DNA of 64,000 nt. Source: Camelus ferus. Taxonomy: Eukaryota. A program made the translations under genes and the position numbers. The stretch's first letter is position 1, and each line of letters opens with the position of its first letter. The stretch is from NCBI RefSeq assembly GCF_009834535.1, contig NC_045696.1, positions 5,830,001 through 5,894,000 of the forward strand, written 5' to 3'. Positions 1 through 52,500 of this stretch are shown in pieces. The notes under the pieces are model-generated. The model made no database searches and was not told the origin of the DNA. It saw only the letters and a program-made list of their open reading frames with translations.

Positions 1-510
1 TTTGTAAACTGATATGCAGTCATTTTCTGGTGGAGTATGCGGTCTGGCTTCATACTCTCTTATTTTGCACTTCCAGTAAGTTTTAGCACGGTATTTTCTA
101 TCAAGTCTATGGACATAGTTGTTATGAACCACTGTTTTAAGACGCCAGGCCTGCTGGTCATTGTGGACACCACCAGGAGGGCTCAGATTCATGTGACGTC
201 AAGGTGGGAGTGCTGCGTCAGTGGAGCAATGAAACCAAACTGTCAACGGGCTGTTTCATCTTTTATGGCAGAATTGCCTGGCAGCCAGTCAGTTGTGCGC
301 TGCGAAGGCCTTGGGGAAGTGGTGCAGCAGAGCCGTCTGCGGGAAACACGCTGGCGGTGAAGGTGCTGGAAGGTTCCGCTCGTGTCAGCGGTGCTCGGGG
401 CCTGGGCGCTCCGGGAACACGTGGGCTTGTTCCGAGTCTCCTAAATCATCTGTCCTGTAGAGTTTAAGTTAGCTTTCAGTGTTCAGAAACATTCTTTAAA
501 GGGAAAATTT

Positions 511-1522
511 TTTTTTTTTATTGATTTATAATCATTTTACAATGTTGTGTCAAATTCCAGTGTTCAGCACAATTTTTCAGTTATTCATGGACATACACAT
601 ACTCATTGTCACATTTTTTTCTCTGTGAGTTATCATAACATTTTGTGTATATTTCCCTGTGCTATACAGTGTAGTCTATTCTACAATTTTGAAATCCCAG
701 TCTATCCCTTCCCACCCTCCACCCCCCTGGTAACCACAAGTCTGTATTCTCTGTCTGTGAGTCTATTTCTGTCCTTTATTTACGCTTTGTTTTTGTTTGT
801 TTGTTTTTGTTTTTGTTTTTTAGATTCCACATATGAGCGATCTCATATGGTATTTTTCTTTCTCTTTCTGGCTTACTTCACTTAGAATGACATTCTCCAG
901 GAGCATCCATGTTGCTGCAAATGGCATTATGTTGTCGGTTTTTATGGCTGAGTAGTATTCCATTGTATAAATATACCACATCTTCTTTATCCAGTCACCT
1001 GTTGATGGACATTTAGGCTGTTTCCATGTTTTGGCTATTGTAAATAGTGCTGCTATGAGCATTGGGGTGCAGGTGTCATCCTGAAGTAGATTTCCTTCTG
1101 GATACAAGCCCAGGAGTGGGATTCCTGGGTCATATGGTAAGTCTATTCCTAGTCTTTTGAAGAATCTCCACACTGTTTTCCATAGTGGCTGCACCAAACT
1201 GCATTCCCACCAGCAGTGTAGGAGGGTTCCCCTTTCTCCACAGCCTCTCCAGCATTTGTCATTTGTGGATTTTTGAATGACGGCCATCTGACTGGTGTGA
1301 GGTGATACCTCATTGTAGTTTTGATTTGCGTTTCTCTGATAATTAGTGATATTGAGCATTTTTTCATATGCTTTTTGATCATTTGTATGTCTTCCTTGGA
1401 GAATTGCTTGTTTAGGTCTTCTGCCCATTTTTGGATTGGGTTGTTTATTTTTTTCTTATTGAGTCGTATGAGCTGCTTATATATTCTGGAGATCAAGCCT
1501 TTGTCGGTTTCACTTGCAAAAA
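511..1522 (-). mobile_element. 5'-truncated young L1 (ORF2 C-terminus, 3'UTR, polyA), antisense in the last PSMG1 intron
   Basis: ORFs 1149-1496 and 820-1428 encode the L1 ORF2 end (RYHLTPVR...HCWWEC...KKMWYIYTMEYYSAIK), joined by one frameshift near 1287. Perfect 16-bp TSD tttaaagggaaaattt at 495-510 and 1523-1538. Confidence 0.95.
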
Positions 1523-2258
1523 TTTAAAGGGAAAATTTAAATAACTTTCTTTAACGTTTCCATTTCTTGCTCTGAACATGATGATTTGCGGGCGGGGTTG
1601 GAAGAGTGCTGTTTTCCTAGTGACCAAGTACCGTCCTCCTGGGTCACTGCGTAGTTTCTGTCCATTGAAAGTGTTGTTTGGGTAACCATGGGGAGTTCTC
1701 TCAAGTGCCCGCTGTGTGGACCCACAGTGTCTCGTGGGCCACAGCCTGGAGGTGGCGCAGGTGGCCGTGGCGCCAGCCAGGGTCGGGGGGAGCAGCGGCC
1801 AAGGTTAACCCGAGGAGAGGCTCCCGGGAAGGTGGCCGTTCAGCTACACTTGGCAGATGGGGGCTCCTAGTGGGTAGGGCTGTGCAGAGGGAGGCAACGT
1901 GAGCACGAAGTGGGCACGTTCCGGGCGCCTGGGGAGAGCGGCGTGAGTGTGGGTGGGAGTGGGGTGCAGAGGGAAGTGAGCTCACGTGGGAGGGGTGCGC
2001 CGAGTGGCGCGTCATGTCCCTCTAAGGCCCTCAGACCCCTGGGGAGGCCCTGGGGTCACACCTGTTCCGGCAGCGCTTGGACCAGGGGTCGGCTCGCTTG
2101 GATGTTGTGCCTTTTGAGCGTGGAGCTGAGAGGCCGGCTGGCTCCGCTGGCTGCACTTCTTTGCTTATGTCTCGATAGCGTAGGGACTGGCCTGTGTGCA
2201 TTGCTTCTAACTGAGTTCCCAACCTCAATATTTCAACAGCTTTTTTCTCTCCTTCCAG

Positions 2259-2333
2259 AATATTCCCCAGAGCACAGAGATACTGAAGAAATTGATGACG
2301 ACAAATGAGATTCAGAGTAACATTTACACATGA
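2259..2333 (+). CDS. PSMG1: Terminal coding exon of proteasome assembly chaperone 1 (PAC1/DSCR2)
   Basis: Polypyrimidine tract plus acceptor (ttttttctctccttccAG, AG at 2257-2258), then a phase-0 frame NIPQSTEILKKLMTTNEIQSNIYT-TGA that matches the human PSMG1 C-terminus as I recall it. Branch-point-like TTCTAAC at 2205-2211. Upstream exons lie outside the window, so 1-2258 is the last intron. Confidence 0.95.
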   Translation, partial: NIPQSTEILKKLMTTNEIQSNIYT

Positions 2334-2443
2334 TTCTGAAGATTGTTTTGTAGTGTATCACCCATCCATTCGTTTAAGGGGAGCAGCGTGCAGTGTTTTG
2401 TAGGTTACTTTTTTCAGGGAAGTATTTTGAGGGAGTGAAAAAC

Positions 2444-2449
2444 AATAAA
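2444..2449 (+). terminator. PSMG1: PSMG1 polyadenylation signal AATAAA
   Basis: AATAAA ~110 nt after the stop codon, followed by a U/GU-rich downstream element (ttgtagttttagttccttttttatggtggt). Confidence 0.75.
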
Positions 2450-2527
2450 CTTACCTTAAATTCCTTGTAGTTTTAGTTCCTTTTTTATGGTGGTACTGTT
2501 CACAACTGAAATAAGCCATTTTTTTAT

Positions 2528-2541
2528 CCACTAGGTGGGAG
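2528..2541 (+). promoter_or_regulatory. Possible CTCF site just 3' of PSMG1
   Basis: CCACTAGGTGGGAG differs from the CTCF core CCASYAGRKGGCRS at one position; motif evidence only. Confidence 0.3.
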
Positions 2542-2687
2542 TATTGTTTTGTTTGAATATTTTAAGGTAATATAGTTAAATTGCTAAAAAGCTACAGATA
2601 CCAACAGGTTTATTAATATGTCAAAATATATACTTGAGTGCAAAAATTCTGTATGGTTTGTGAAAGTTGATGATCTATGGGTGATTC

Positions 2688-2908
2688 TTTTTTTTTAATC
2701 TTTATTTTAATTGAAGTATAGTCAGTTTACAGTTCTGTGTCAATTTCTGATGCACTGCATAATGTTTCAGTCATACATACACATACATTTATTCCTTTTC
2801 ATATTCTTTTTCAGCAAGTTACTACAAGATATTGAATACAGTTCCCTGTGCTATATAGTAGAAAATTCTTGTTAATCTGCTTTATATATTGTAGTTAGTA
2901 TGTGCAAA
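2688..2908 (-). mobile_element. L1 3'UTR/polyA fragment running into the assembly gap
   Basis: PolyT then aattgaagtatagtcagtttac..., the same 3' end as other L1 copies in the window. Confidence 0.85.
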
Positions 2909-3008
2909 NNNNNNNNNNNNNNNNNNNNNNNNNNNNNNNNNNNNNNNNNNNNNNNNNNNNNNNNNNNNNNNNNNNNNNNNNNNNNNNNNNNNNNNNNNNN
3001 NNNNNNNN
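2909..3008. other. Assembly gap (100 N)
   Basis: Exactly 100 N, typical of an unknown-size scaffold gap. Confidence 0.99.
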
Positions 3009-3279
3009 CTTTCATTTTGGCAGATTGGCTGACTGGGGTTCATGAAGAAATGTCCACATGTGTTCAACTTCCCCGGCAAGACTGGTGGCCCCTGAAGGCC
3101 TCTCAGAGGGCAACTTTTGAGTGTGGTATTGATGGCAGGAGGTCTAGGGGGCCTCACAAGCCCCCTCAAATCCAGAGCTGGCATCAAAGCCAGGGGTGAA
3201 CTGCTTTTGGGGGAGGGTGGTCTTCTCATGCCTTCAGAACTGGGCAAGGGCCTTGGGTCCGAGCTCCTCCACCCCAGAG

Positions 3280-3799
3280 TGACTCACTAAACTGCCCTGA
3301 GTGCCTTCTTTGAAACGGAGACGGTGGTGACCCTTGATGTTACTGTGGCCCCCCCTTTGTAACTGCTCCTTCCCTGTCCCGCTGGTGATGTGGTGAGTGG
3401 CAGGACCCGGAGGCCGCTGCCGGGAGCTGCACAACCTCAGCTTCTTTCTTCTCCCGGATCACCTGGGGAGCCCCAGGAGCCCTCCCCAGGACCCACGGAA
3501 TCCCCGCTGCCTGCCTGGTGACTGCGCAGGAGAGCCGGACCCGCCTGAGTCACGAGGCTGCTTTCTCCCCGGCACTGAGTCATTCTTAACAAGGCCTTCT
3601 GACGGGCAAATGGCTGTCATGACCCAAGATTCATCTAAGCCTGCAGGTACAGCCTGGGGGAGGGGGGAAGCACACAGGCTGAGGGAGGGAGGATCCTGCA
3701 GAGGAATCATGGGTTAGGATCCTGACTGCCTGAGGGCCAGGCCCACGTGGATATGCGAGTCAGGGGACAAGAGACAGCAGAGAGGTCGCTGGTGAGTCA
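3280..3799. promoter_or_regulatory. AP-1 motif cluster (candidate enhancer)
   Basis: Perfect TGASTCA at 3280, 3546, 3576 and 3793, plus E-box CACGTG at 3744. Confidence 0.45.
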
Positions 3800-3843
3800 G
3801 GGCATTTCAGCACCAGTAAGAGTAACTCCTGGGACCCTGAGCT

Positions 3844-4778
3844 TTTTTTTTCTTTTTAATTGAAGTGTAGTTCATTTACAATGTTAGTTTCTGGTGTACA
3901 GCAAACTGGTTCAGTTATATACATGTAACTGCAGTTATATATACATATATTCTTTTTCAGATTCTTTTCCATTATAGGCTGTTACAAGATATTGAATATA
4001 GCTCCCTGTGCTATAGCGTGAATCCTTGCCATTTATCTGTTTTATATATAGTGATGTATATCTGTTAATCCCAAACTCCTAATTTATCCCTCTCTCCCTG
4101 CTTTTCCCTTTGGTAACCGTGTTTGTTTTCTATGTCTATGAGTCTATTTCTGGTTTGTAAATAAGTTTGTATCTTTTTTTTCTGGATTCCCCATGTAAGT
4201 GTTATGATGTTTGTCTTTGACTTCCTTTACTTCATGTTATAATCTCCAGGTCCATCTCTGTTGCTACAAATGGCATCATTGCATTCTTTTTTATGGCTGA
4301 GTAATATTCACACACACATATATATTTTATATATATATACACACACCACATATTCTTTATCCATTCGTCAGTGGACATTTAGGATGCTTGCATGTCTTGG
4401 ATATTGTAAACAGTGCTGCTATGAACACTGGAGTGCATGTATCTTTTTGAATTAGAGTTCTCTCCAGATATATGCCCAAGAGTGGGGTTGCTGGATCATG
4501 TGGTAACTCTATTTTTAGTTTTTTAAGGAACCTCCATACTATTCTCCATAGTGGCTGCACCAATTTTCATTCCCACCAACAGTGTAGGAGGGTTCCTTTT
4601 CCTCCATACCCTCTCCAGCATCGATTATTTGTAGACTTCTTAATGATGGCCATTCTGACAAGCGTGAGATGGTACCTCATTGTAGTTTTGATTTGCATTT
4701 CTCTAATAATTAGCAGTATTGCGCATCTTTTCATGTGCCTGTTGGCCATCTGGATGTCTTTGGAGAAATGTCTATTTA
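3844..4778 (-). mobile_element. 5'-truncated L1 (ORF2 end plus 3'UTR)
   Basis: ORFs 4357-4563 and 4567-4851 are L1 ORF2-like. 14-bp TSD tgggaccctgagct at 3830-3843 and 4779-4792. Confidence 0.93.
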
Positions 4779-5349
4779 TGGGACCCTGAGCTATGAATCT
4801 CTTTAAAAGATGATCATTATAAACCTGACCATCTTCATAAAGCCCTAACAACCAGCTGACAAATGTTCAATCATATTAACCACTTTTTAACTTCAAAATC
4901 TCTTCCAGCATTAGTTCAGATTTTCTCCTTGAGTCCTGTTTTATTTCCCTGTCATATGTTATAGTTTTTGCCACTATCTGGTTTTCTATGCAGCAGCATA
5001 ATCCTCTCTGGTGTCCCTTTTTTATGTATGATATGATGTGGTAGAAGAACCATGGGCTTGGAGCCAGGACACCTGGTCTGAGTCCCCTGAAGCTTTAGGA
5101 CCAGAGGGGAACCCTCCCATCTCTCCACCTGACCCTGCTGTCTCCTTCGGGAGGGAGGGGTGATAATCCGACCTTCTTCAAGGGTGTGGAGCCTAAGATA
5201 AAATCAGTGTGCATGAGATTAAAACAAAACCCATCATGTATTCTGCAAAGCACACATTATCTTAGTAGTTCCCTCATCATTTCTGGATCACCATGAACTC
5301 AAGTGGTTTCCAGCCGCTCATGCTTATAAACAGTGCTGTAGCTTAAAAT

Positions 5350-5665
5350 TTTAAAAATTTATTATTAATTAATAGACCTTTTTAGAGCAGTTTTAGGTTT
5401 ATGGAAAAATGAGTCAAAAGTGCAGAGTTCCCAGAAACCCCTTCCCACTCCCTCCCACAGCTCCTCCTGTTATTAGCATGTGTCCAAGTGCTGTATTTGT
5501 TACAATCAATGAGCCACTATGGATACATTATTATTAACTAAAGACCTCATTTACATTAGGGGTCACTCTTTGTGTTGTACTTCGTATGGCTTTTGACAAA
5601 TGCATAATGACATGTATTCACCATTTCAGAATCATGCAGAATAGTTTCACTGCCCTAGAAATCCA
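5350..5665 (-). mobile_element. Old L1M (L1MC/MD-like) 3'UTR
   Basis: tttagagcagttttaggttt...agagttccca...gaatagtttcactgccctagaaatc motifs; a related copy lies at ~19977-20270. Confidence 0.7.
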
Positions 5666-5959
5666 CTGCTGTGGCATTTTTGCACAATGTCTCTGCAGTT
5701 CATTTGGTTATTCAGTGACTTCACTGGAGTCCTAGCAAGGGGTATGACTACCTTTGTAATTTTCATCACACCTGGCCACTTTGCTAAACATCCAGGTTAC
5801 ATTTGTAGCACCTTGAAAATATAGAAATGTGTCTGTTCCCGTATGACTCCATAATACTGGATTTAATTATTGTTCCTAGCTGGAGATTAAAGACTTTATT
5901 TTAGAATAACTTTTTATCATCAAAGCAATGAATGCTTATTCAGAATCCCAACCATCCCT

Positions 5960-6115
5960 GTATTTATTCATTGAACACCAGTTTATTAAGTGCCTGCTGG
6001 GTTAGGACCCCTTCTGGCTCTGGGGCTACATAATAGAACCAGATGGCCATGGGTCATTGTCTCCAAGGAGTTCACATTTGGGCAGGCAGGACAGATGATA
6101 AGTAAGCAATTTTAA
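5960..6115 (-). mobile_element. L2 3' remnant
   Basis: tatttattcattgaacaccagtttattaagtgcctgc...ctccaaggagttcacatt resembles the L2 3' end. Confidence 0.55.
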
Positions 6116-8360
6116 GATATGGCAGTTAGTGAGAAGTGCCCAGGGGTAAGGGGTGAAGGGGTAGACCTGTGGTTTGCCACCTGAGTACTAGTTAGGAACC
6201 CCCCTCCACCCGCCAACCCAAACCATGGACTTTCAGATACATCTGGGAACCCATCTGGGATAGGCTGACTCAAAACACAGGGCTGAGGGCGTGAAAGCTT
6301 GCAGGCAGCTCTGGGTACATCCAGCACTGAGTCTCTCCAGGTGGACAAGTGCGAGAGCGGAAGTGGCTTTGGTTTTGGACAGGTTGGCAGAGAAGTCCTC
6401 TCCTGTGAGGTGCACTTGCTCAGGGAAGCTGGGTTGGGGGAGCGCTGGGACACAGGGAACAGCACTGCGGGCAGGGGAGCACCTAGCAGAGCTCTGAGGC
6501 AAGCAGGGCATTCTGGTTCCCACCCTGAGTGTTGGACTCCTGAGACCTCTTCACTGTCATGGACATGGAATTGCTTAGGGACCAGCCTGGAAACAGGGAG
6601 AAAAGGAAAAAAGGAAGAAACCCACAGAGCTTCCTCCCACAATCAGAGCCTTAGGAGAGCCCCTTCCCCACTCCCGGAGGGCTCCCTGTCCACCCTGATG
6701 AGCGCCCTGGGGTGGCAGCTGGTTGAGTTCAGGCCACTGGTGGGAAGAAGAAATGGTCAACTCCCCTTCGGTTGGGTGAGCCTCTGAATTCTGGCCTTTT
6801 TTCCTGGTCGCCTACCTGCCGCCGTTTACTTTCCAGAGTGCTCATGAATTCTGTCCAGGTTTTATAGCTGCGCTTAGTGGGAGAGACAGGACTGAAATGG
6901 GCAGGTGTTACTTTTGTCTCTGTTTTACAGATGAGAAATGGTACTGAACGGAACATGTCTGGGACATTCACAGGGCTTAAGAGGGGGCCTGCTGGACCTG
7001 AGCCAGGGCTGGACCTCTTGACTCGCTGGCCCCCACCCCCATCACCCCCTGCCCACCTGCTCCACCCTAGTTTATTTCAACAGGCTCCTGCTGTCAGACA
7101 CGTAGGCTGGTTCTGTTTTTAATATGATGAAATATGATAGAATTCCATACCCGCAAGTCTTTGAGCACATGTCTGTTTCTGGAAGTGGACTTGTTGAGTC
7201 TAAGAGCGTGAATACCTTTAAGACTTCAGTTAAAAAATGAGCACGTGTTAGGAAGTGTTCAGCAGGATGTCTGTGCTGTCCTCAGATGTCCTTGGTGACC
7301 TGCCCCTTGGGGTGAGGGGGTGAACGGCTGGGGATTGACTTGACCACACTGGACCCTGGGTGGGGAGCACTCCAGCCTAGGGTCCACAGTCTAGCGAGAC
7401 CCTGCAGGGGAGGGGTGTACCCGCCTTGCTTTGGGCGTGGCTTTTGCACCTGGAGCCCCTGCTGGGGCGGGGTGCCCCCAAAGCCCTGGGCTATCGGCTC
7501 CCAGCCACCCTGCACGTAGCTGGTTCAAAAGTCGTTGTCCTAATTTGACCCCTTTGTGCATCACCCCTAACTTATTAAGCCCCACATCTGCATAAATTTC
7601 CTTTTAGTATTGAAAGGTCATTGCTATATTTGTCTTCTCCCCAAATGAGACAAGAACCTTCTCACTTCCCTGTGGTCTCGCTCTGGCCTTCCCACCCCTG
7701 CCCCCGACATCTGTTCACACAGTTGTATCTGGAGTTTATTCCCACATCAGTCTGCATAGTGGGCACTGCTGGTGCCCCCCAAGGGCCCTTCAGAGGGCTG
7801 AGAGCTGCCTGCTAACAGCTCCCAGGCCCCCATGGTCTGCCTCGCCCTGGACAGCCTTTGGCCAGTTACTGACCACCGGTGAGCTGGTCAGAGCTGGACT
7901 CCAGCCGCTCCCTGCATTTCCAGCCCAGTCCTGCCTCCCTTGCTCCCCTGAGCCCTGCAACCCCTTCACGAGAGCCTCTGCCAGGCTCTGCTGCTGGGAA
8001 CTTGGCCTGAGGCACGAGGAACATAATATTTCGGACTCACGGCTAATTTTGACCACACTTTTTTCTTTTGCTGAATTTTACACTGATCCTCACTTATTCT
8101 ATCCTCCTGCCTTCTTCTGGTTTTTTTTTCTTCCTGCCAGAGTAAATGCCTCAAAGATTTTCTCAAATAGGCCCCTGTGGAATAAGTTCTTTGAAATCAT
8201 GTGTGTATGAGAATAACGTCACTTCCTCTGTAAGTTACTTAGTTTTTCGTCACAAAGCTCACTATTTTAGGTTAAAATGCTTTTCCTTCAGAATATTCAA
8301 GCGGTTCCCCGCTGTCCCTCTGACAGCCCCGGTGAGAGTTTGGTTTTGTTCCGTGGTAGG

Positions 8361-15483: not shown

Positions 15484-16634
15484 GGTGATTGCACCCAAGA
15501 TTCCTGCCATCTTAATGGCAAAGTCAAAGACAAAACCCAGAGGAAAATGTCCTTGTTTCCTTTAAAAACCAAGGGCTGTGGAGTTTGATTACATTTTTAT
15601 AAACCGTGTTTATAAACACTTGCAAACACCCCAGAGCACGAACAGTCAACCCATGTTTGTACTATAAATGGATTTGTTTTAACCGGTTCTCTTATGTGTG
15701 TCACTGTGCAGATGGATGACAGTTCTTGGCTTTGACCCCAGCTTCTCAGAATCAAATGTGCACAGTCACTGGGCAGCTGCAGATGTCCTGTGTCACCTCG
15801 GACACATGGCGGGAAGAAAGAATCCAGGGTTGGGGTGGCGCCTGGTGGGCACAGTGGGACCTGGCCCTGAGCCCAGAGGAGGAGCTGAGGAGGGAAACAG
15901 GCGATTTAAGTGGTGGTCATTGGACATTTGACCGGATTTGTTCACAGAGTGGGCAGGACACCCTCGAGAACCCCCAGGCAAGGGCCCAAGGGTGGGCTGT
16001 CATTAGCAGGGTAGGATGGGCTCTGAGAAAGCGTGTGGCCCAAGCTGGTGTCCAGAGTTGGTGGGAGCGATTAGCAGTGTTTGTCCAACTCATGGTCCTC
16101 ATCAGAGCAGTTTGGAAGATGAACACCCCTGCCCTCAGATCACTAGAGGGGGTTGTTCATGTGGATCACAGGCAGTGATCCACATCCAAGGGCTCTGAGA
16201 AAGACGTGACTGAAACCATATTACATCCACTCACGTGCTGTAGACAGGGCTGGCTTTGTAATTGTGCTCAATTTGGAGATGGAAACGTCGAGGCTCAGAG
16301 AGCCCACTGGATCGCCCAGCTGGCACCTCAGTGCATCTCAGCTCAGGAGACAGACCACGGGACATCCTCACTTTATCTTCCTCTTTTCCTCATTGCCCAT
16401 TCTGGGGTGCCTCCATCAAGGCTGCTGTTTAACCAGTTGTCATTTGTTTCATTAAATACATTCAAGTGTTTTTCTCTCACAAGAGCCATCCCTGCTTGGA
16501 CACGTTCCTCTCACAAAATACCTTGGTGGTTGCTGGTGATCTGCTTGCCTTCCCTTTACCTTCACCAAGAAAATCAAAGATTGAAGTCCCTTTGCAGAAG
16601 AGAAACTTTCCATTTATAAGCTTAAAAGGGTTCA

Positions 16635-38522: not shown

Positions 38523-39707
38523 CATCTAAGATGGGAACTGAGGAGGAACCGCTCAGTGATCCTGGCCCCTCAGCTTCAGCTGCTGTAGACTGTTCCTGGC
38601 TAGGAGGCTCAGCAAGCCTGTTTGCAGCATTTTGGATCCTTACCTCCAATCTCCCAGGAAAGCAGAGATGTTATCCAAAGGCTAACGATATGCAGATGCT
38701 TATGCAAATATGTGCTCCTGGATCCTCTCTCATCTTTTCAGTGCAAGGCTTATGCAACCTGCTGCACTGAGTCACGCCCCCACCCCCTCCCCTACTTCTC
38801 TACGTAGGAGATTGACGGATGCTAAACATGAGAGCTTGCAAAACTGTGCAGTTGAAACAAGACCTGGTTTCGTAAGCAAAATGTTCCAGCTCCACCCCAT
38901 GCAATCCTGTGACTAGTACTTTGGGGAGATTCCCCCAGGGAAATCCCTAAGAGCAGAGGGAGATTTAAGAGGTCAGAAGGTAGGGGAAGTCAGGAAAGGG
39001 CAGTTTTTGCTGCTTCGAGGCTCTTTTGGGGCAATCGAGACTGTGGAACATAGAGGAAGGGTATTCCAGACTCACAAGGGTAATCAGACTTTAGAAAGTT
39101 GAAGCCTGCGCTGGCTGGTTCTCTCTCCTATGCAGAATCCAGGGGTGAGGGTGGAGTGAGAGCTCGGGACAGGGAGCAGGGCCCCCTCCCCCACATGAGT
39201 GGAGTCCCTCAGTTTCTGCATCTGTCAAATGGGAAGAAAGTCTCCCTCACAGGGAGATCTGAGAGGATGCGTAGTGCTTGAAGCTGGCTCCTGGGGAGTT
39301 AACCATCAGCAGACTGCCGGCCAGGCCCTGCCCAGAAACAGCGCTGGGAGCGCCTCCCCCCACCCCCAACATTTGGTGTCAGATTTTAAGGGAGAGCTCA
39401 CCTGGAGAAGGCCGAGGACTCTCAGGGCACTGGTGGGTCAGGAAACCGGACCTTCTGACCTTTGCAGTGTATTTTTATAGCTATCCTGGTGGAAGTGGGC
39501 GGCTGGGGGGTGGCCTCCCTTGTTATTTTTATCCGTGCTGTTTCTCCTCACCTGGCTTTCACGGCATCCTCAACAAGGGCACCCAAAGGGAAGAGAGGGA
39601 GATAGCGCTGTGCTTTGAGAAACCAAGGGACTCCCAGGAAGTTCAGATCTAGGCTCAGCAGAGGCAGGTGTGCTGGAGGCAGGGCTTCCGGGCACCCCCG
39701 CACAGAA

Positions 39708-39828
39708 GTACTCTCTCTATAGCGCCAGCAGTAAATTTCTATCTCCTATACTTTAGAAGAGTGTGTAAATGTTTTGTTTAACGGTTTTAAAATAGTTGAA
39801 ATGTGGTGTTTTCTGGGCTAGCTCTAGT
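39708..39828 (-). pseudogene. MT-RNR2: 16S mt-rRNA 5' fragment (within the NUMT)
   Basis: actagagctagccc...aaagtataggagatagaaat...ggcgctatagagagagtac. Confidence 0.9.
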
Positions 39829-39894
39829 TCAAAACGTTCATTTCTATGAAATCTCCTGAGTGTAAATTAGGTACTTTTTTTAAGCTACGTTTTG
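39829..39894 (-). pseudogene. MT-TV: mt-tRNA-Val (TAC) pseudogene (within the NUMT)
   Basis: CAAAACG TA GCTT AAAAA AAGT A CCTAA TTTACAC TCAGG AGAT TTCAT AGAA ATGAA CGTTTTG A. Acceptor and T stems pair; the anticodon stem has an A-C mismatch. Confidence 0.9.
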
Positions 39895-40572
39895 CTCATC
39901 CAAGCACACTTTCCAGTATGCTTACCTTGTTACGACTTGTCTCTTCTCATACGTTTTGCACTTGTTTATATTTTCTTGCAGGCTCGTTGGACTTGAAGAG
40001 GGTGACGGGCGGTGTGTGCGTGCTTCATGGCCTAGTTCAATCAAGCACTCTATTCTTGATTTACTACTAAATCCTCCTTGGGCCCTCAGTTTCATAGGGG
40101 CTTTCGTAAGGATTTTGAGATTTTCTTAGGACAAGAAAATGTAGCCCATTTCTTCCCATCCCATTGGTTACACCTTGACCGTAACGTTTTTATGTTTGAA
40201 TAGTTAAGCTTACTTTTGGTCCCTATAGGGGTTTATAGAGATGGAGATGGCGGTATATAGACTGAATTAGCAAGGGTTGGTGAGGTTGATTGGGGTTTAT
40301 CGATTATAGAACAGGCTCCTCTAGGGGGTATGAAGCACCGCCAAGTCCTTTGAGTTTTAAGCTGTTGCTAGTAGTACTCTGGCGAGTGATTTTGTTATTA
40401 TAATCACTTAGGTTTAAGGCTAAGCATAGTGGGGTATCTAATCCCAGTTTGGGTCTTAGCTGTCGTGTAGTAGATCGTATTAGGGTCACTTTCGTAGTTT
40501 ATTTTTACGTTGGTCATAGCTTTTTACATCTTGACCAAGACTTAACTCTATTTACTAGTTACTCATTAACAC
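39895..40572 (-). pseudogene. MT-RNR1: 12S mt-rRNA pseudogene fragment (within the NUMT)
   Basis: Conserved 12S helices ending ...ggaaagtgtgcttggatgag; the 5' part is missing. Confidence 0.95.
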
Positions 40573-41109
40573 ACGGTGCAGGCGGGTGTGCAGCACTCCC
40601 GCGTGGAGGGCCGCCAGGACCAGGGCCAGGACCAGGGCCGGCGCTTAAGGTCCGCAGGCTGAACTTCAAGGACTTGCTCAGCCGCTGGCACATAGATTGA
40701 GTGATGCTGGGCAAGATGCAAATGCTTTGCTCTGAGCTTCAATTTCTTTATTTAAAAAATGACAAAATATCCAACTTGCCAGCCTTTCAGTTGCGGGGGT
40801 CTAGTGCCAAGGTTCTCATACTGTGTGTAAACTGTTAGGTGAGAGCAAGACATCTTACAACCAGCCGTCTCTGCTCTGCAGAAGAGCTTTGAGTTGGTTT
40901 AGTTTTTATAAAGTGTGAAGGTGGTGACGACTCTGATGGATGTCTGAGGAGCAGCCGTTTCCCGCCGCCTTCCCTGAAGCGTGAGCTGCTCACTTGCTCC
41001 CCCGTGGCGGGGTCGGGGGCAGCCTCGGTTAGGGGCCCCCTGGGTGTGCCCCTGGCTCTGTGAGCGGGTCCTGCTTAGGGTGGGGGTTCTTCCCTCTCCA
41101 GATGCCATG

Positions 41110-41565
41110 ACCTCTTTGATGATGCCTGTGGACCCCTTGTTAGGATAACGTTTTTAAATGCATAAAATAAAACACTCTGGATTGCAAAGAAAATCAACTA
41201 GTATATCGATACACAGTTACTATAATTAAAAAATTTGTGCTCTCATTTTTAACGTATTTTGTAATAAGACCTACCAGCCGTTCTGATAACCACTCTTATT
41301 TCAAAGTAGTGATGGCCAATCAATGCTATTCTGAGATTTCTGGAACAAATGTAACGTTACATCAAAGTATCTGTGATTTCTAATCCATGGCCAAGTCCTA
41401 GGTTCAGTCTGTGCTGTTTGTTGTGTTCATTCACAATGGAAGTAAATGCTAATTTTCAGTTGGAGGTTAGGAAAAATATAAATGTCATTATTTTCCTAAG
41501 CAACTTCAAAGACCCCCTCGAGTTCTGTCCTTAGGGGTCTTGCGGACCCCTGATTAGGAGCCCTT
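41110..41565. mobile_element. hAT-Charlie-type DNA transposon remnant
   Basis: AT-rich body bounded by ctgtggacccctt...tttttaaatgcataaaataaaa and ...ggggtcttgcggacccctgattaggagccct. Confidence 0.55.
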
Positions 41566-42744
41566 GAATTAGAGCTTATTCATCGGGAATGTCTACCCGG
41601 CTTCCTGCAACTGCTGTGCATTTACCCCCTCCCTCCCTCCCTCTGTCCCTTCCTTCTCCACTGAATTCCCAGCTTGATACACAATAGCCCTTGATAAATA
41701 TTTCTGGAAGGAATGAATTCCTTCAATTATAGGCATGAGGTGAGCTTCTGTTAGGAGCCAAGTGCTTTGTAAGCTGTTGATAAAAAAATAGCTCCACCAA
41801 GCTCTGTGCCCTCATCACGAGGGACCTCCAAGTCGTGGACAGGCCAGCGGCGGCACCTGCCCGGGTTCTGTCACCTTGGATATTTGGCTGATTGGTGACA
41901 AGAAATTTTTTTTACAAACCCACATGCCTTGGGATCTCTACATAAGTGTTGTAAAGTAAGAATTCTTTTCTGCGGGCTGATATTTTAGAGGATTTGTTGC
42001 AGTTTATACACCCCACCTCCCTGCCATCTCCTTGCCACCTGCCAGGTGCTGTCAGCTGGTGCTGAAAGCTAGAAATGTCAATATTCTAATCTTTGCTTCC
42101 TGAGAATATGAATACTGGGTTCATGAAAATGCAAATCTTTCTTGGGTACAAGCTTCGCTTATCACTCGTGCCTGTGGGACTGGGAAAGATGTAAAGCCAC
42201 TTACAGTTGTTAGAGCCCTTTTCCACATTGTTCAATTGCTTGTGGAATTTAATGGTTGAATTTAGACTTAATTTCATGCACTCGTCTCTTCAGGAAATAC
42301 ATGAACATCTCATCTCATTGCTCTCCATACATAAAATACTGGTTGATTGGCTCTGCCTTCTGTTCCTGCTGCCCTGTCCACCGTCCCCAGGTAGCATGAT
42401 GGGGTCAGGACATTGAATCACAGGCTATTCCTCTCACTGGCTCCAAGAGTTCCTGAAGGATGCATGAAATGGAGGCTGCCCGTCCTTCCTGACTGTAACC
42501 AAGAAAAGTTTAAGAAAATATACATACATACATATACACCTGTGTGTGTGTGTTTGTGTGTTTGTGTGTGTAATCCAAACATTACTTACCCTTAACATAC
42601 ACACGTGTGCTGAAATTTTCGGTTCTAGTCTAAGTGCTTAAGCCTGTGTTCACATACATATACAGCTTGTGCGTGTAGACACACGTACACGTGCTGAAAC
42701 GGTGTGTATCCTGACATATTCCATTCTATTCCATCCTTTTTTTT

Positions 42745-49598: not shown

Positions 49599-52500
49599 TT
49601 TGCTGTTAGCCCTGGGGTGAGGGTAGGGGGTGGGGGGAGCCGTGCTGGCATGTTTGTGGTCTGGGTCACGGGAAACTGGCTCCTTGCTCCTGTGTGAGTG
49701 AAGTCAGGGAGGTGGGTCAGTGTCTAAGCTTTTCTCCTGCTTTCCTGAAGAATGATGCTCTTTGCAGCTCAGACTTCAGGTTAGTCTTTCTCCCTTACCT
49801 GGGTAAGTTTAGATTCCCATATGCGGGCTCCCTATAAGTTGCAATTCTCTCTTGTGAAATCTGTTTGACAGTTGGTTCAAGCGCTGTGACTGTGGCTCGT
49901 TCCCTTGTTGATCTGGGGGTAGAGGTGGTCGCAGCAGATGTGCTGTGGCTGGGAAACGAAGCCTGGCGGGGAGATACCAAAACTCCTGTTGGGGACGGCG
50001 GAGTGTGTCAACGGGGACTCCTGGATGTCGGAGTGGAACCAGTGGGCCAGTGTGGGCTGTGGGCGCTGTTGCATCCCGGAGCCCTTGCTCAGGAGAGCCA
50101 GCCGCCGAGGTGAGCGGGTTTGGAGCCTCGCTCATGGGCAAGTCACTCAGCCTCTTGGCGTCTCTATTTTCCCATCCGTGAGACAGAATTTACATTCTTA
50201 GCGGGTCTCTCCTGAGACTGGAGAAAACATTTGAGAGCCGCCCGGGAGAGAAGGCACGGAGCGCAGGCGCGGAGCAGCGCACCCCTACCGATGGGATCCG
50301 GAGACGCCAGGATGTGATCTCCAAGCAGGAAATCCAAGAAATTCCCAAGTTAAGATTTCACCAGAGAGGTCAAATCATCCTCGGGCAGTATAGAGAAAAA
50401 AGAGGCAGACAAAATTAAACAAAACCAGGAAGAAATCCAAGAGATCACGGAGAAAAAATGTCCAGCCAGATCCTCCCAGGGTGTACGTGACTCCGTAGGA
50501 GCTGATTCTCCCTCGGAGCGTGTTGCCGCCTGCAGGCTCCCCGGAAGACGCTACCACAGCCGCCAGCAAACTTGTCCACTCCTACGGGGACTTTCGAGGC
50601 TGCTGGGTAACCTAAGCCTTGCTCCGATCTCTGTCAGCATCCCTTTAATATGATTTGAAAGAAAGATTCCTAGGAAGCCACTGGCACACCAGTTCCTTCT
50701 GCACAAACTCTCCACCAGGAGTCAAGTCCCTGCTGTGGGAGGTGGCTCGGGGCGCTGTCTCTGTGGACACTGCTGCCGGCGGAAATCCCGCCAGGTGCGT
50801 TCCACCCACGGTGCAGGGTCCGAAAGTCTGAGTCCCAGTGGAGAAGGGCGTCAGGAGAGTGTGTGGGTCCTCTGCATCATATCTTTCTCCAAATCGGAAA
50901 AGGTAAAATGCCCAAGTCATCTCTGGACAGACATTTCTAGAACAATGATTGCCTAATAATAATTAACCAGTCTCTGTTCCTTTGGGGACATCTAGATTGT
51001 CAAATCTGTGAAATGACTGGGCTTTTTGCATTCCTCTGGTAACACTGAAGTCAAATTCTGGAAGCAGAAGTAAATCCTCCATCCCACGATATGGAGCCTT
51101 ATTTTAAAAACCAAATGAGACAGTCACCAACTCATGCCAGGTGTGGGTTCTAAGTGCCCAGATGCACGATGGGGTGGCACTAGCCCTTCCCCAGTGTTCC
51201 CCAGCCAAACCACTGAAGACTCAAGAGTATTACTTCAAAAGGCTCATAGTTCCCTACTCTTGAAAATTAAAAAAAATATGTTTTCCCTGATTATCCAAGT
51301 TATTCGTGCCCATTGCAGACAGCTGGAAATGAGAGTGTAGAGGAAGGGATGGAATTTACCATGATGCTCCCACCAGCCAAGGTAGCCGCTGTGAACATTT
51401 TGATACAGAACATGTTGATATGAACAGCTTGGATCTTACGGTATCGACTTTTTTTCCTTTCCTTTTCTACTTAATATTGTGTATAATGTTTAGTGACATT
51501 TTTCCATGTCACTGAAAATTATTTGTAAGCATGGTTTTAAAGCTTTTCATTATGAAAATTTAAAAACAGACCAAATCAGAGAGCAGTTTATCATGAACTG
51601 GAAACACTGACAATTATCAGAAAGTGGCCACTCTTGTTTTTTCTAACGCCTCTAATCCCTCACTCCCACCCCAAATTACTGTGAAATGCTTCCTAAGAAT
51701 CACATAATTTCACCTCTAACAGTTTCAGTATGCAACTGAAAGGTAAGGAAAAGTCAGAGAACTTAAAAACAAGTAATACCAATAAAACCACAATCCCATT
51801 ATCCTGTCTAAAAACAAATGACAAATTTTTAACATCACCAAATATCCAGTCAAGGCTTACACGTCCCTGAGTGTCTTGTGAATTTTATTTTTGACCATTT
51901 GTTTATTTGAATTGGGATCCAAACAAGACTGATTCATTTAGATTGTTCCATAAATCTCTCTCTTATTATTAAATTATTCTTACAATTTGCTTGTTGAAGA
52001 AGCCAACACATTCGCCCAGTAATTTCCTAGAGTCTGATATTGCTGATGGAATCCAGGTGACTTTGTCTAACATGTTTCTCTAGCCTTTCTTTTTCCTACC
52101 TGTTAGTAGTTATTGGCATCTTCCAGCAGGTCTGCAGGCGGTAACACACTCCGAGGGAGAATCAGCATCTTGATAAGGGACCAAGAGGGCAGCGTGGCAA
52201 CAAGTGATTCCAACTGCTGATCATCCTGCAGGTGACTCCTCCTGTGAGGACACAGTCACCACTTAACCCTGTGGCTCTTGCTAGGAGAGGCTGCAAACGT
52301 GGGTGCACAAAGGAGAGAGTGGAGGCAACATTCAAGAAAATTGAAAGTGAGGATGAGGGGCTCGTGTGTGTGTGTGTGTACGTGTACGTGTAAAATACCT
52401 GGATAGCTGCCTTACCTCTATGTTGGAATTTGTTGGTTGAGATATAATTAGTTTGGTGCTTAAATTTTGCATGTTTTCTATTATTGACGAAGCATAACGT

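Follow-up and report, generated by a model that had tools for sequence, protein, structure and literature searches.

An 865-bp mitochondrial insertion with 12S, tRNA-Val and 16S sequence between PSMG1 and ETS2 in the genome of Camelus ferus

The genome assembly of Camelus ferus contains, in the DNA between PSMG1 and ETS2, a fragment of mitochondrial sequence that is very probably a real nuclear insertion (NUMT), a non-functional pseudogene and ordinary of its kind. It comprises an incomplete 12S rRNA gene, a complete tRNA-Val gene and the beginning of the 16S rRNA gene, and it is presumably without function and fixed in the species. The insert lies within a 64,000-nt stretch of contig NC_045696.1 (C1 in the following; assembly GCF_009834535.1, positions 5,830,001 to 5,894,000), which we refer to as the window; positions given without a contig name count from its first letter, and positions marked 'mt' refer to the mitogenome of the same assembly. 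The coordinates of the insert, its parts, its lesions and its neighbours are collected in Table 1.

The extent of the insert follows from a blastn comparison of the window with the assembly's own mitochondrial contig, C2043. This returned a single long match to the reverse complement of mt 363-1221, which has 33 mismatches and 2 gap openings along its 865 columns (95.491% identity), and a search of the whole genome recovered the same place; the mitochondrial source segment measures 859 bp. C2043 represents a complete mitogenome of mammalian type, 16,680 bp in length, whose 22 tRNA genes follow the mammalian order; tRNA-Phe occupies positions 1-68, 12S 69-1034 and tRNA-Val 1035-1100, with 16S starting at 1101. 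The cytochrome b that it encodes is letter-for-letter that of a Camelus ferus record, and its 16S length of 1563 is the one that PMC5577142 gives for Camelus, in agreement with the camelid origin that had been proposed for the insert in a preliminary description of the window.

That description had also placed a 12S/tRNA-Val/16S segment in native gene order at 39708..40572; blastn reproduces these coordinates exactly, and Rfam and ARAGORN agree on the content and on an order colinear with the mitogenome. Rfam finds a small subunit (SSU) rRNA match of 176.6 bits (E 4.1e-53) in the window, next to the tRNA, and ARAGORN calls tRNA-Val(tac) in the insert in its mammalian-mitochondrial mode and no tRNA there in its default mode. 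Of 12S, the insert lacks the 5' 294 nt. In the window, the SSU match runs on to 40647, where the full-length model is forced into the nuclear flank; when the insert is searched alone, the match ends at 40572. An apparent second mitochondrial piece at 52363-52392 is in fact simple sequence, a GT/ACGTGT microsatellite that resembles the control-region repeat (CACGTA)n at mt 16340-16381 with 90-93% identity over 29-30 nt.

Table 1. Coordinates of the mitochondrial insert, its parts, lesions and junctions, and of the neighbouring genes
Feature	Position	Mitogenome position	Strand	Basis or remark
Whole NUMT	39708..40572 (C1:5869708-5870572)	363-1221	-	blastn and own-genome search
First 121 nt of 16S rRNA	39708..39828	1101-1221	-	Alignment to C2043, where 16S begins after tRNA-Val at mt 1101
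tRNA-Val(tac) pseudogene, complete, 66 nt	39829..39894	1035-1100	-	Rfam tRNA, 38.0 bits; ARAGORN -mtmam
12S rRNA pseudogene fragment, 3' 672 nt of the 966-nt gene plus 6 inserted nt	39895..40572	363-1034	-	Rfam SSU; borders from tRNA positions
T>C change, A-T to A.C mismatch in the tRNA-Val anticodon stem	39858	1071	-	Alignment, Rfam, ARAGORN
1-nt insertion in the conserved GTTAGGTCAAGG 12S motif	40181	between 748 and 749	-	In the insert only, of 6 aligned copies
Complex 12S lesion, 5 inserted nt and two changed bases	40235..40241	693-695	-	In the insert only, of 6 aligned copies
Left junction, nuclear DNA / 16S end of insert	39707..39708		.	Blunt, 0 nt microhomology
Right junction, 12S end of insert / nuclear DNA	40572..40573		.	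Blunt, 0 nt microhomology
PAC1-family (PSMG1) exons	C1:5821200-5828971		+	End about 1 kb before the window
Split Ets domain (ETS2-like exons)	C1:6072708-6073785		-	Right of the window
Single-exon ERG-like Ets domain	C1:6453706		+	Beyond the ETS2-like exons
Two IRK genes	C1:6522108 and C1:7004191		.	Beyond the ERG-like Ets exon

The placement between PSMG1 and ETS2, likewise part of the preliminary description, is borne out by PAC1-family exons on one side and a split Ets domain on the other. The insert lies downstream of PSMG1 at a distance of about 41 kb, and its distance from ETS2 is about 202 kb. The neighbour order PSMG1, ETS2, ERG, KCNJ15, KCNJ6 is what we take to be that of human chromosome 21.

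At both ends of the insert, similarity to mtDNA ends abruptly, and the first flanking base is already unlike the mitochondrial continuation. The G+C content is 0.345-0.455 inside the insert, 0.555-0.585 in the left flank and 0.535 in the right flank. A comparison of both flanks revealed no direct repeat adjoining the junctions and no target-site duplication; the longest word common to the two flanks has 7 nt and lies away from the junctions. The sharp junctions, the GC-rich flanks and the lack of an obvious target-site duplication, all of which had been remarked on before, are therefore visible in the sequence comparison itself. We also considered a diverged target-site duplication, of which the collinear words GCAGG, GGTGTGC and TGGAGG in the flanks might be remnants. 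The best local alignment of the 60-nt flanks spans 12 columns and is not adjacent to the junctions, and we rejected this candidate because 63 of 1000 shuffles reached the same score; such words are expected by chance in G+C-rich DNA. With neither long homology nor a transposon-type target-site duplication, the junctions have the form expected of end joining.

The surrounding DNA is nuclear and, next to the insert, single-copy. The left 408 nt of flank have only self-matches in the genome, and in the right flank the listed matches all begin at its position 531 or later, which makes the adjoining approximately 530 nt appear single-copy as well. In the assembly, the insert is thus embedded within a chromosome-sized contig, between non-mitochondrial single-copy flanks. 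About 0.5 kb to its right, at 41103-41533, lies an old dispersed repeat with dozens of matches of 65-89% identity genome-wide. The sole run of N in the window (100 N, 2909-3008) is presumably a scaffold gap and is found about 2 kb past the end of PSMG1.

The insert is one of many nuclear matches to this part of the mitogenome. In the own-genome search, the segment yielded 25 matches, namely the insert, the mitogenome contig C2043 and 23 other nuclear matches. Two of the latter are parts of much larger copies, which share with the insert both the 12S/tRNA-Val/16S stretch and the mitochondrial origin. The first is a 7.07-kb nuclear stretch on C3 (C3:44105426-44112498) that corresponds to mt 1-7072 with 99.774% identity, the 7073 columns containing 15 mismatches and a single gap. 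Its start at mt 1 might be taken for an artefact; the 7 preceding bases, however, agree with the last bases of the circular mitogenome as well, so that the true start is merely hidden by linearisation. There is no N run around this copy within the 26 kb examined, and the stretch represents a NUMT of very recent origin or else mitochondrial sequence that the scaffold places wrongly. The second, on C4 (C4:17501561-17510052 and beyond), is an old near-whole-mitogenome NUMT, 80-90% identical, which is colinear backwards from mt 4728 as far as mt 12511 at least, passing through position 1 and the control region and thereby crossing the circular origin. Compared with these two, the insert is short and has private indels, and in the tree described below it is of intermediate age, the C3 copy being far younger and the C4 copy far older.

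We aligned the insert with the living mtDNA (C2043) and with the nuclear copies on C3, C4, C37 and C32. In this six-way alignment, the insert and the living mtDNA differ in 34 substitution columns (29 transitions and 5 transversions) and 6 gap columns, which corresponds to a gap-free identity of 96.04% and a distance of 34/859 = 0.0396. The substitutions are distributed over all three genes, with 26 in 672 nt of 12S, 3 in 66 nt of tRNA-Val and 5 in 121 nt of 16S.

Three lesions deserve separate mention. At 40235-40241, the insert has CCATCTCCATCTCTATAAACC in place of the CCATCTCCAGCAAACC that is found in the mtDNA and in the C3 and C4 copies; C37 and C32 vary near this site and share ...CAGCAAAC/GC, without the insertion. 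An altered 12S motif had been noticed at about 40235-40250, where it was read as a local duplication. It is real, and a tandem duplication of CCATCT with further changes thereafter is one possible history of the lesion among others. The second lesion, at 40181, was overlooked in the preliminary description. It falls inside the conserved GTTAGGTCAAGGTG motif and is an insertion relative to the Rfam SSU consensus, and the motifs struck by the two 12S insertions are unchanged in the other five aligned copies. The third is the A-C mismatch in the tRNA-Val anticodon stem, which had been pointed out before and which we locate at 39858. Among the close copies, it is confined to the insert: the site is T in the mtDNA and in the C3 and C4 copies, and C in the two oldest copies, C37 and C32, so that the direction of the T>C change rests on C4.

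These lesions are reflected unequally in the model scores. Over the SSU model range 627-1533, the insert scores 179.3 bits vs 205.2 bits for the living mtDNA. By contrast, and against expectation, the tRNA model assigns an identical score of 38.0 bits to the insert and to the living tRNA-Val. In the T arm, at 39845-39847 (mt 1082 and 1084), the insert and the C4 copy have A/A, which yields a perfect 5-bp stem, where the living mitogenome has G at both positions and hence a G.U pair. The tRNA scores are equal because the anticodon-stem mismatch of the insert is offset by its perfect T arm, and with the score unchanged, the tRNA lesion alone is no pseudogene marker. As judged from the aligned copies, the T-arm change appears to belong to the living tRNA and not to the pseudogene. 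Overall, the insert is distinct from the living mtDNA and bears signs of relaxed constraint, that is, substitutions, two private insertions and a lower SSU score.

A maximum likelihood tree of the aligned copies has the topology (C37,C32),(C4,(insert,(mtDNA,C3))), with support values of 97-100/95-100 at all three inner forks. The insert is therefore the sister of the living mtDNA together with the C3 copy, and of the 23 other nuclear matches, 22 are older than it. Its distance from the living mtDNA is about that between the mtDNAs of one- and two-humped camels, and its characterization as fairly recent is well founded in this respect. In the tree, the branch of the insert measures 0.023 and that of mtDNA plus C3 0.018.

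To polarise the 40 columns in which the insert and the living mtDNA differ, we used the C4 copy as the single outgroup, which is 14% away. Thirteen substitutions were assigned to the living mtDNA lineage, 14 substitutions and 6 gap columns to the insert, and 7 columns were ambiguous, 4 of them because the C4 copy lacks the first 19 columns. At the 13 sites, which include both T-arm sites of tRNA-Val, the insert agrees with the older C4 copy and the living mtDNA differs. All 14 substitutions assigned to the insert are transitions, six of them T>C on the light strand, a pattern of change that looks more mitochondrial than nuclear. The polarisation is noisy, given its distant sole outgroup and given that several of the states it scores as derived in the insert recur in C37 and C32.

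These results bear on the earlier suggestion that the insert is a fossil of an ancestral mitogenome. The suggestion is only half right: the 13 ancestral states it has kept speak in favor of this view, but its own branch is about as long as the mitochondrial branch, although an ordinary nuclear rate would have given it the shorter one. The branch pattern is compatible with two readings. Neutral nuclear change at this G+C-rich locus may proceed about as slowly as that of mitochondrial rRNA, or the sequence may have spent a period as a collateral mitochondrial lineage before the insertion. According to the second reading, which we consider rather unlikely, the insert is a real NUMT whose source was not a direct ancestor of the living mtDNA but a collateral lineage, for instance of a one-humped or extinct Camelus that contributed through old hybridisation, and the insertion would be more recent than the divergence suggests. 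The branch of the insert, which is not shorter than that of the mtDNA, and the exclusively transitional changes assigned to it speak for this reading, and the distance of 0.0396 is close to the 0.035 that figures in an extract of PMC5577142 imply for a segment of this kind when the mtDNAs of dromedary and wild camel are compared. Yet the two indel events and the changes in conserved motifs need time outside a working mitochondrion; the counts are small, and a Tajima-type comparison of 14 vs 13 is compatible with many rate ratios, the more so as the outgroup is distant and the polarisation noisy. Moreover, 12S evolves slowly, and neutral change in G+C-rich nuclear DNA could be as fast.

An approximate age can be derived from published camel divergences. 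According to the extract of PMC5577142, dromedary and wild camel show a net divergence of 0.038 in 12S, 0.027 in tRNAs and 0.023 in 16S, and their split is dated to 5.3 [2.9-7.7] Mya; the wild-domestic split is put at 1.1 [0.58-1.8] Mya and that between Camelini and Lamini at 15.8 [9.2-23.2] Mya. Weighted by the composition of our segment, these figures lead to the expected dromedary-wild distance of 0.035 mentioned above; the published values also put the 12S rate at about 0.33-0.36% per Myr. If f denotes the rate of the insert relative to the mitochondrial rate, the age of the node is 2 x 5.3 x (0.0396/0.035)/(1+f), which amounts to 9.2 Myr for f = 0.3 and to 6.0 Myr for f = 1, and the mitochondrial branch alone gives about 5.5 Myr (0.018/0.0033 per Myr). 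From this we infer that the lineages of the insert and of the living mtDNA split roughly 5.5-9 Myr ago, with a range of 3-13 Myr when the calibration interval is included. The split would thus be far older than that between wild and domestic camels, near or before the divergence of the one-humped from the two-humped camels, and younger than the separation from llama and alpaca.

Could the insert instead be an assembly chimera or contamination, in which mitochondrial reads of this or another animal were misjoined into the scaffold? The C3 stretch, with its 99.774% identity to the mitogenome, demonstrates that very mtDNA-like sequence does sit in the chromosomes of this assembly. Nevertheless, we find such an origin highly improbable. 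The preliminary description had already argued against contamination, and its position is upheld by an identity to the own mitogenome of 95.5% (96.0% without gaps), which is not near 100%, and by three copy-specific lesions. An insert diverged by 4% from the assembly's mitogenome is not accounted for by reads of the same animal, and its two insertions in invariant 12S motifs are unlikely to be tolerated by a working mitochondrion of any species. Furthermore, there is no gap nearby, the sole N run being 36 kb away.

Sequencing runs also speak, indirectly and weakly, against a chimera. We determined the share of 31-mers of the interval 38700-41600 that is present in each of 18 runs, which carry one species label and come from 5 studies, on the basis of 304 sampled words that were the same in every run. 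Of the 2871 words of this interval, 600 are specific to the insert or its junctions, which sets a computed ceiling of 0.791 for a genome without the insert. This ceiling is exceeded in 16 of the 18 runs, with shares of 0.83-0.86, a narrow margin for 304 sampled words. The remaining two runs, X13 and X14, have a share of 0.79, equal to the ceiling, and do not speak for or against its presence in them; their value could stem from an empty allele, from a population that is more diverged or from thin assembly.

Lastly, the notion that the insert is a secondary copy, produced by duplication of an older NUMT locus and not by fresh mitochondrial transfer, can draw on the 23 further places in the nuclear genome that match this segment but is scarcely credible, as no nuclear copy is closer to the insert (C3 95.93% and C4 85.9% gap-free identity) than the mitogenome is and the adjoining flanks are without a second copy in the genome.

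We therefore return to an ordinary NUMT captured from mtDNA as the preferred explanation, for which the following course of events may be proposed. A linear mtDNA fragment of 859 bp, reaching from inside 12S through tRNA-Val to the start of 16S, would have been captured at a chromosomal double-strand break in the single-copy DNA between PSMG1 and ETS2 in the ancestry of this Camelus. Its two ends would have been joined bluntly, as by end joining without homology. Subsequently, the insert would have drifted without selection and acquired the two 12S insertion lesions, the change that disrupts the tRNA-Val stem and roughly a dozen transitions more, and the living mtDNA would meanwhile have changed by a similar amount.

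Capture of NUMTs at natural double-strand breaks, by end joining that is either blunt or assisted by microhomology, has been described in primates (PMC2567098, extract). Like the lineage-specific NUMTs of human and chimpanzee described there, the insert is a single, colinear, decaying and non-coding mtDNA fragment in unique intergenic DNA, and its blunt junctions without transposon-type duplication lie within the range of repair outcomes that the extract covers. Whereas the primate junctions were scored against pre-insertion sites for deletions, filler bases and cohesive-end duplications, the camel insert is known from the occupied site alone; we see no difference of kind in this. A camel example comes from a dromedary assembly, in which a NUMT was validated by the depth of its flanks and by PacBio reads that span it (PMC13603154). 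Both that NUMT and the present insert were told apart from redundant mitochondrial sequence by means of an independently assembled mitogenome; the dromedary NUMT, for which the extract of the article gives no coordinates, was validated with spanning reads, whereas the insert is known from assembly sequence. In the literature we searched, we found no catalogue of camel NUMTs, and the extract of PMC5703718, a study of NUMTs in mammalian genomes, mentions neither camels nor alpaca. A 39-base pattern conserved in the insert, the mtDNA and the C4 copy, used to look for other camelid mitogenomes, had 0 matches in collections of metagenome, genome and viral contigs.

NUMTs are abundant in mammals, and one more of them matters little beyond bookkeeping. 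Two practical aspects nevertheless follow from its sequence and position. The 12S and 16S regions are commonly used in species identification and in ancient-DNA work, and an insert that is 96% identical to the living camel 12S/16S could be co-amplified with them and be mistaken for a divergent haplotype. Were it typed as present or absent throughout Camelus and in New World camelids, it would moreover provide one clean insertion marker for the camel tree. Should its source have been a collateral mitochondrial lineage, the insert would record an old hybridisation or an extinct maternal line of Camelus.
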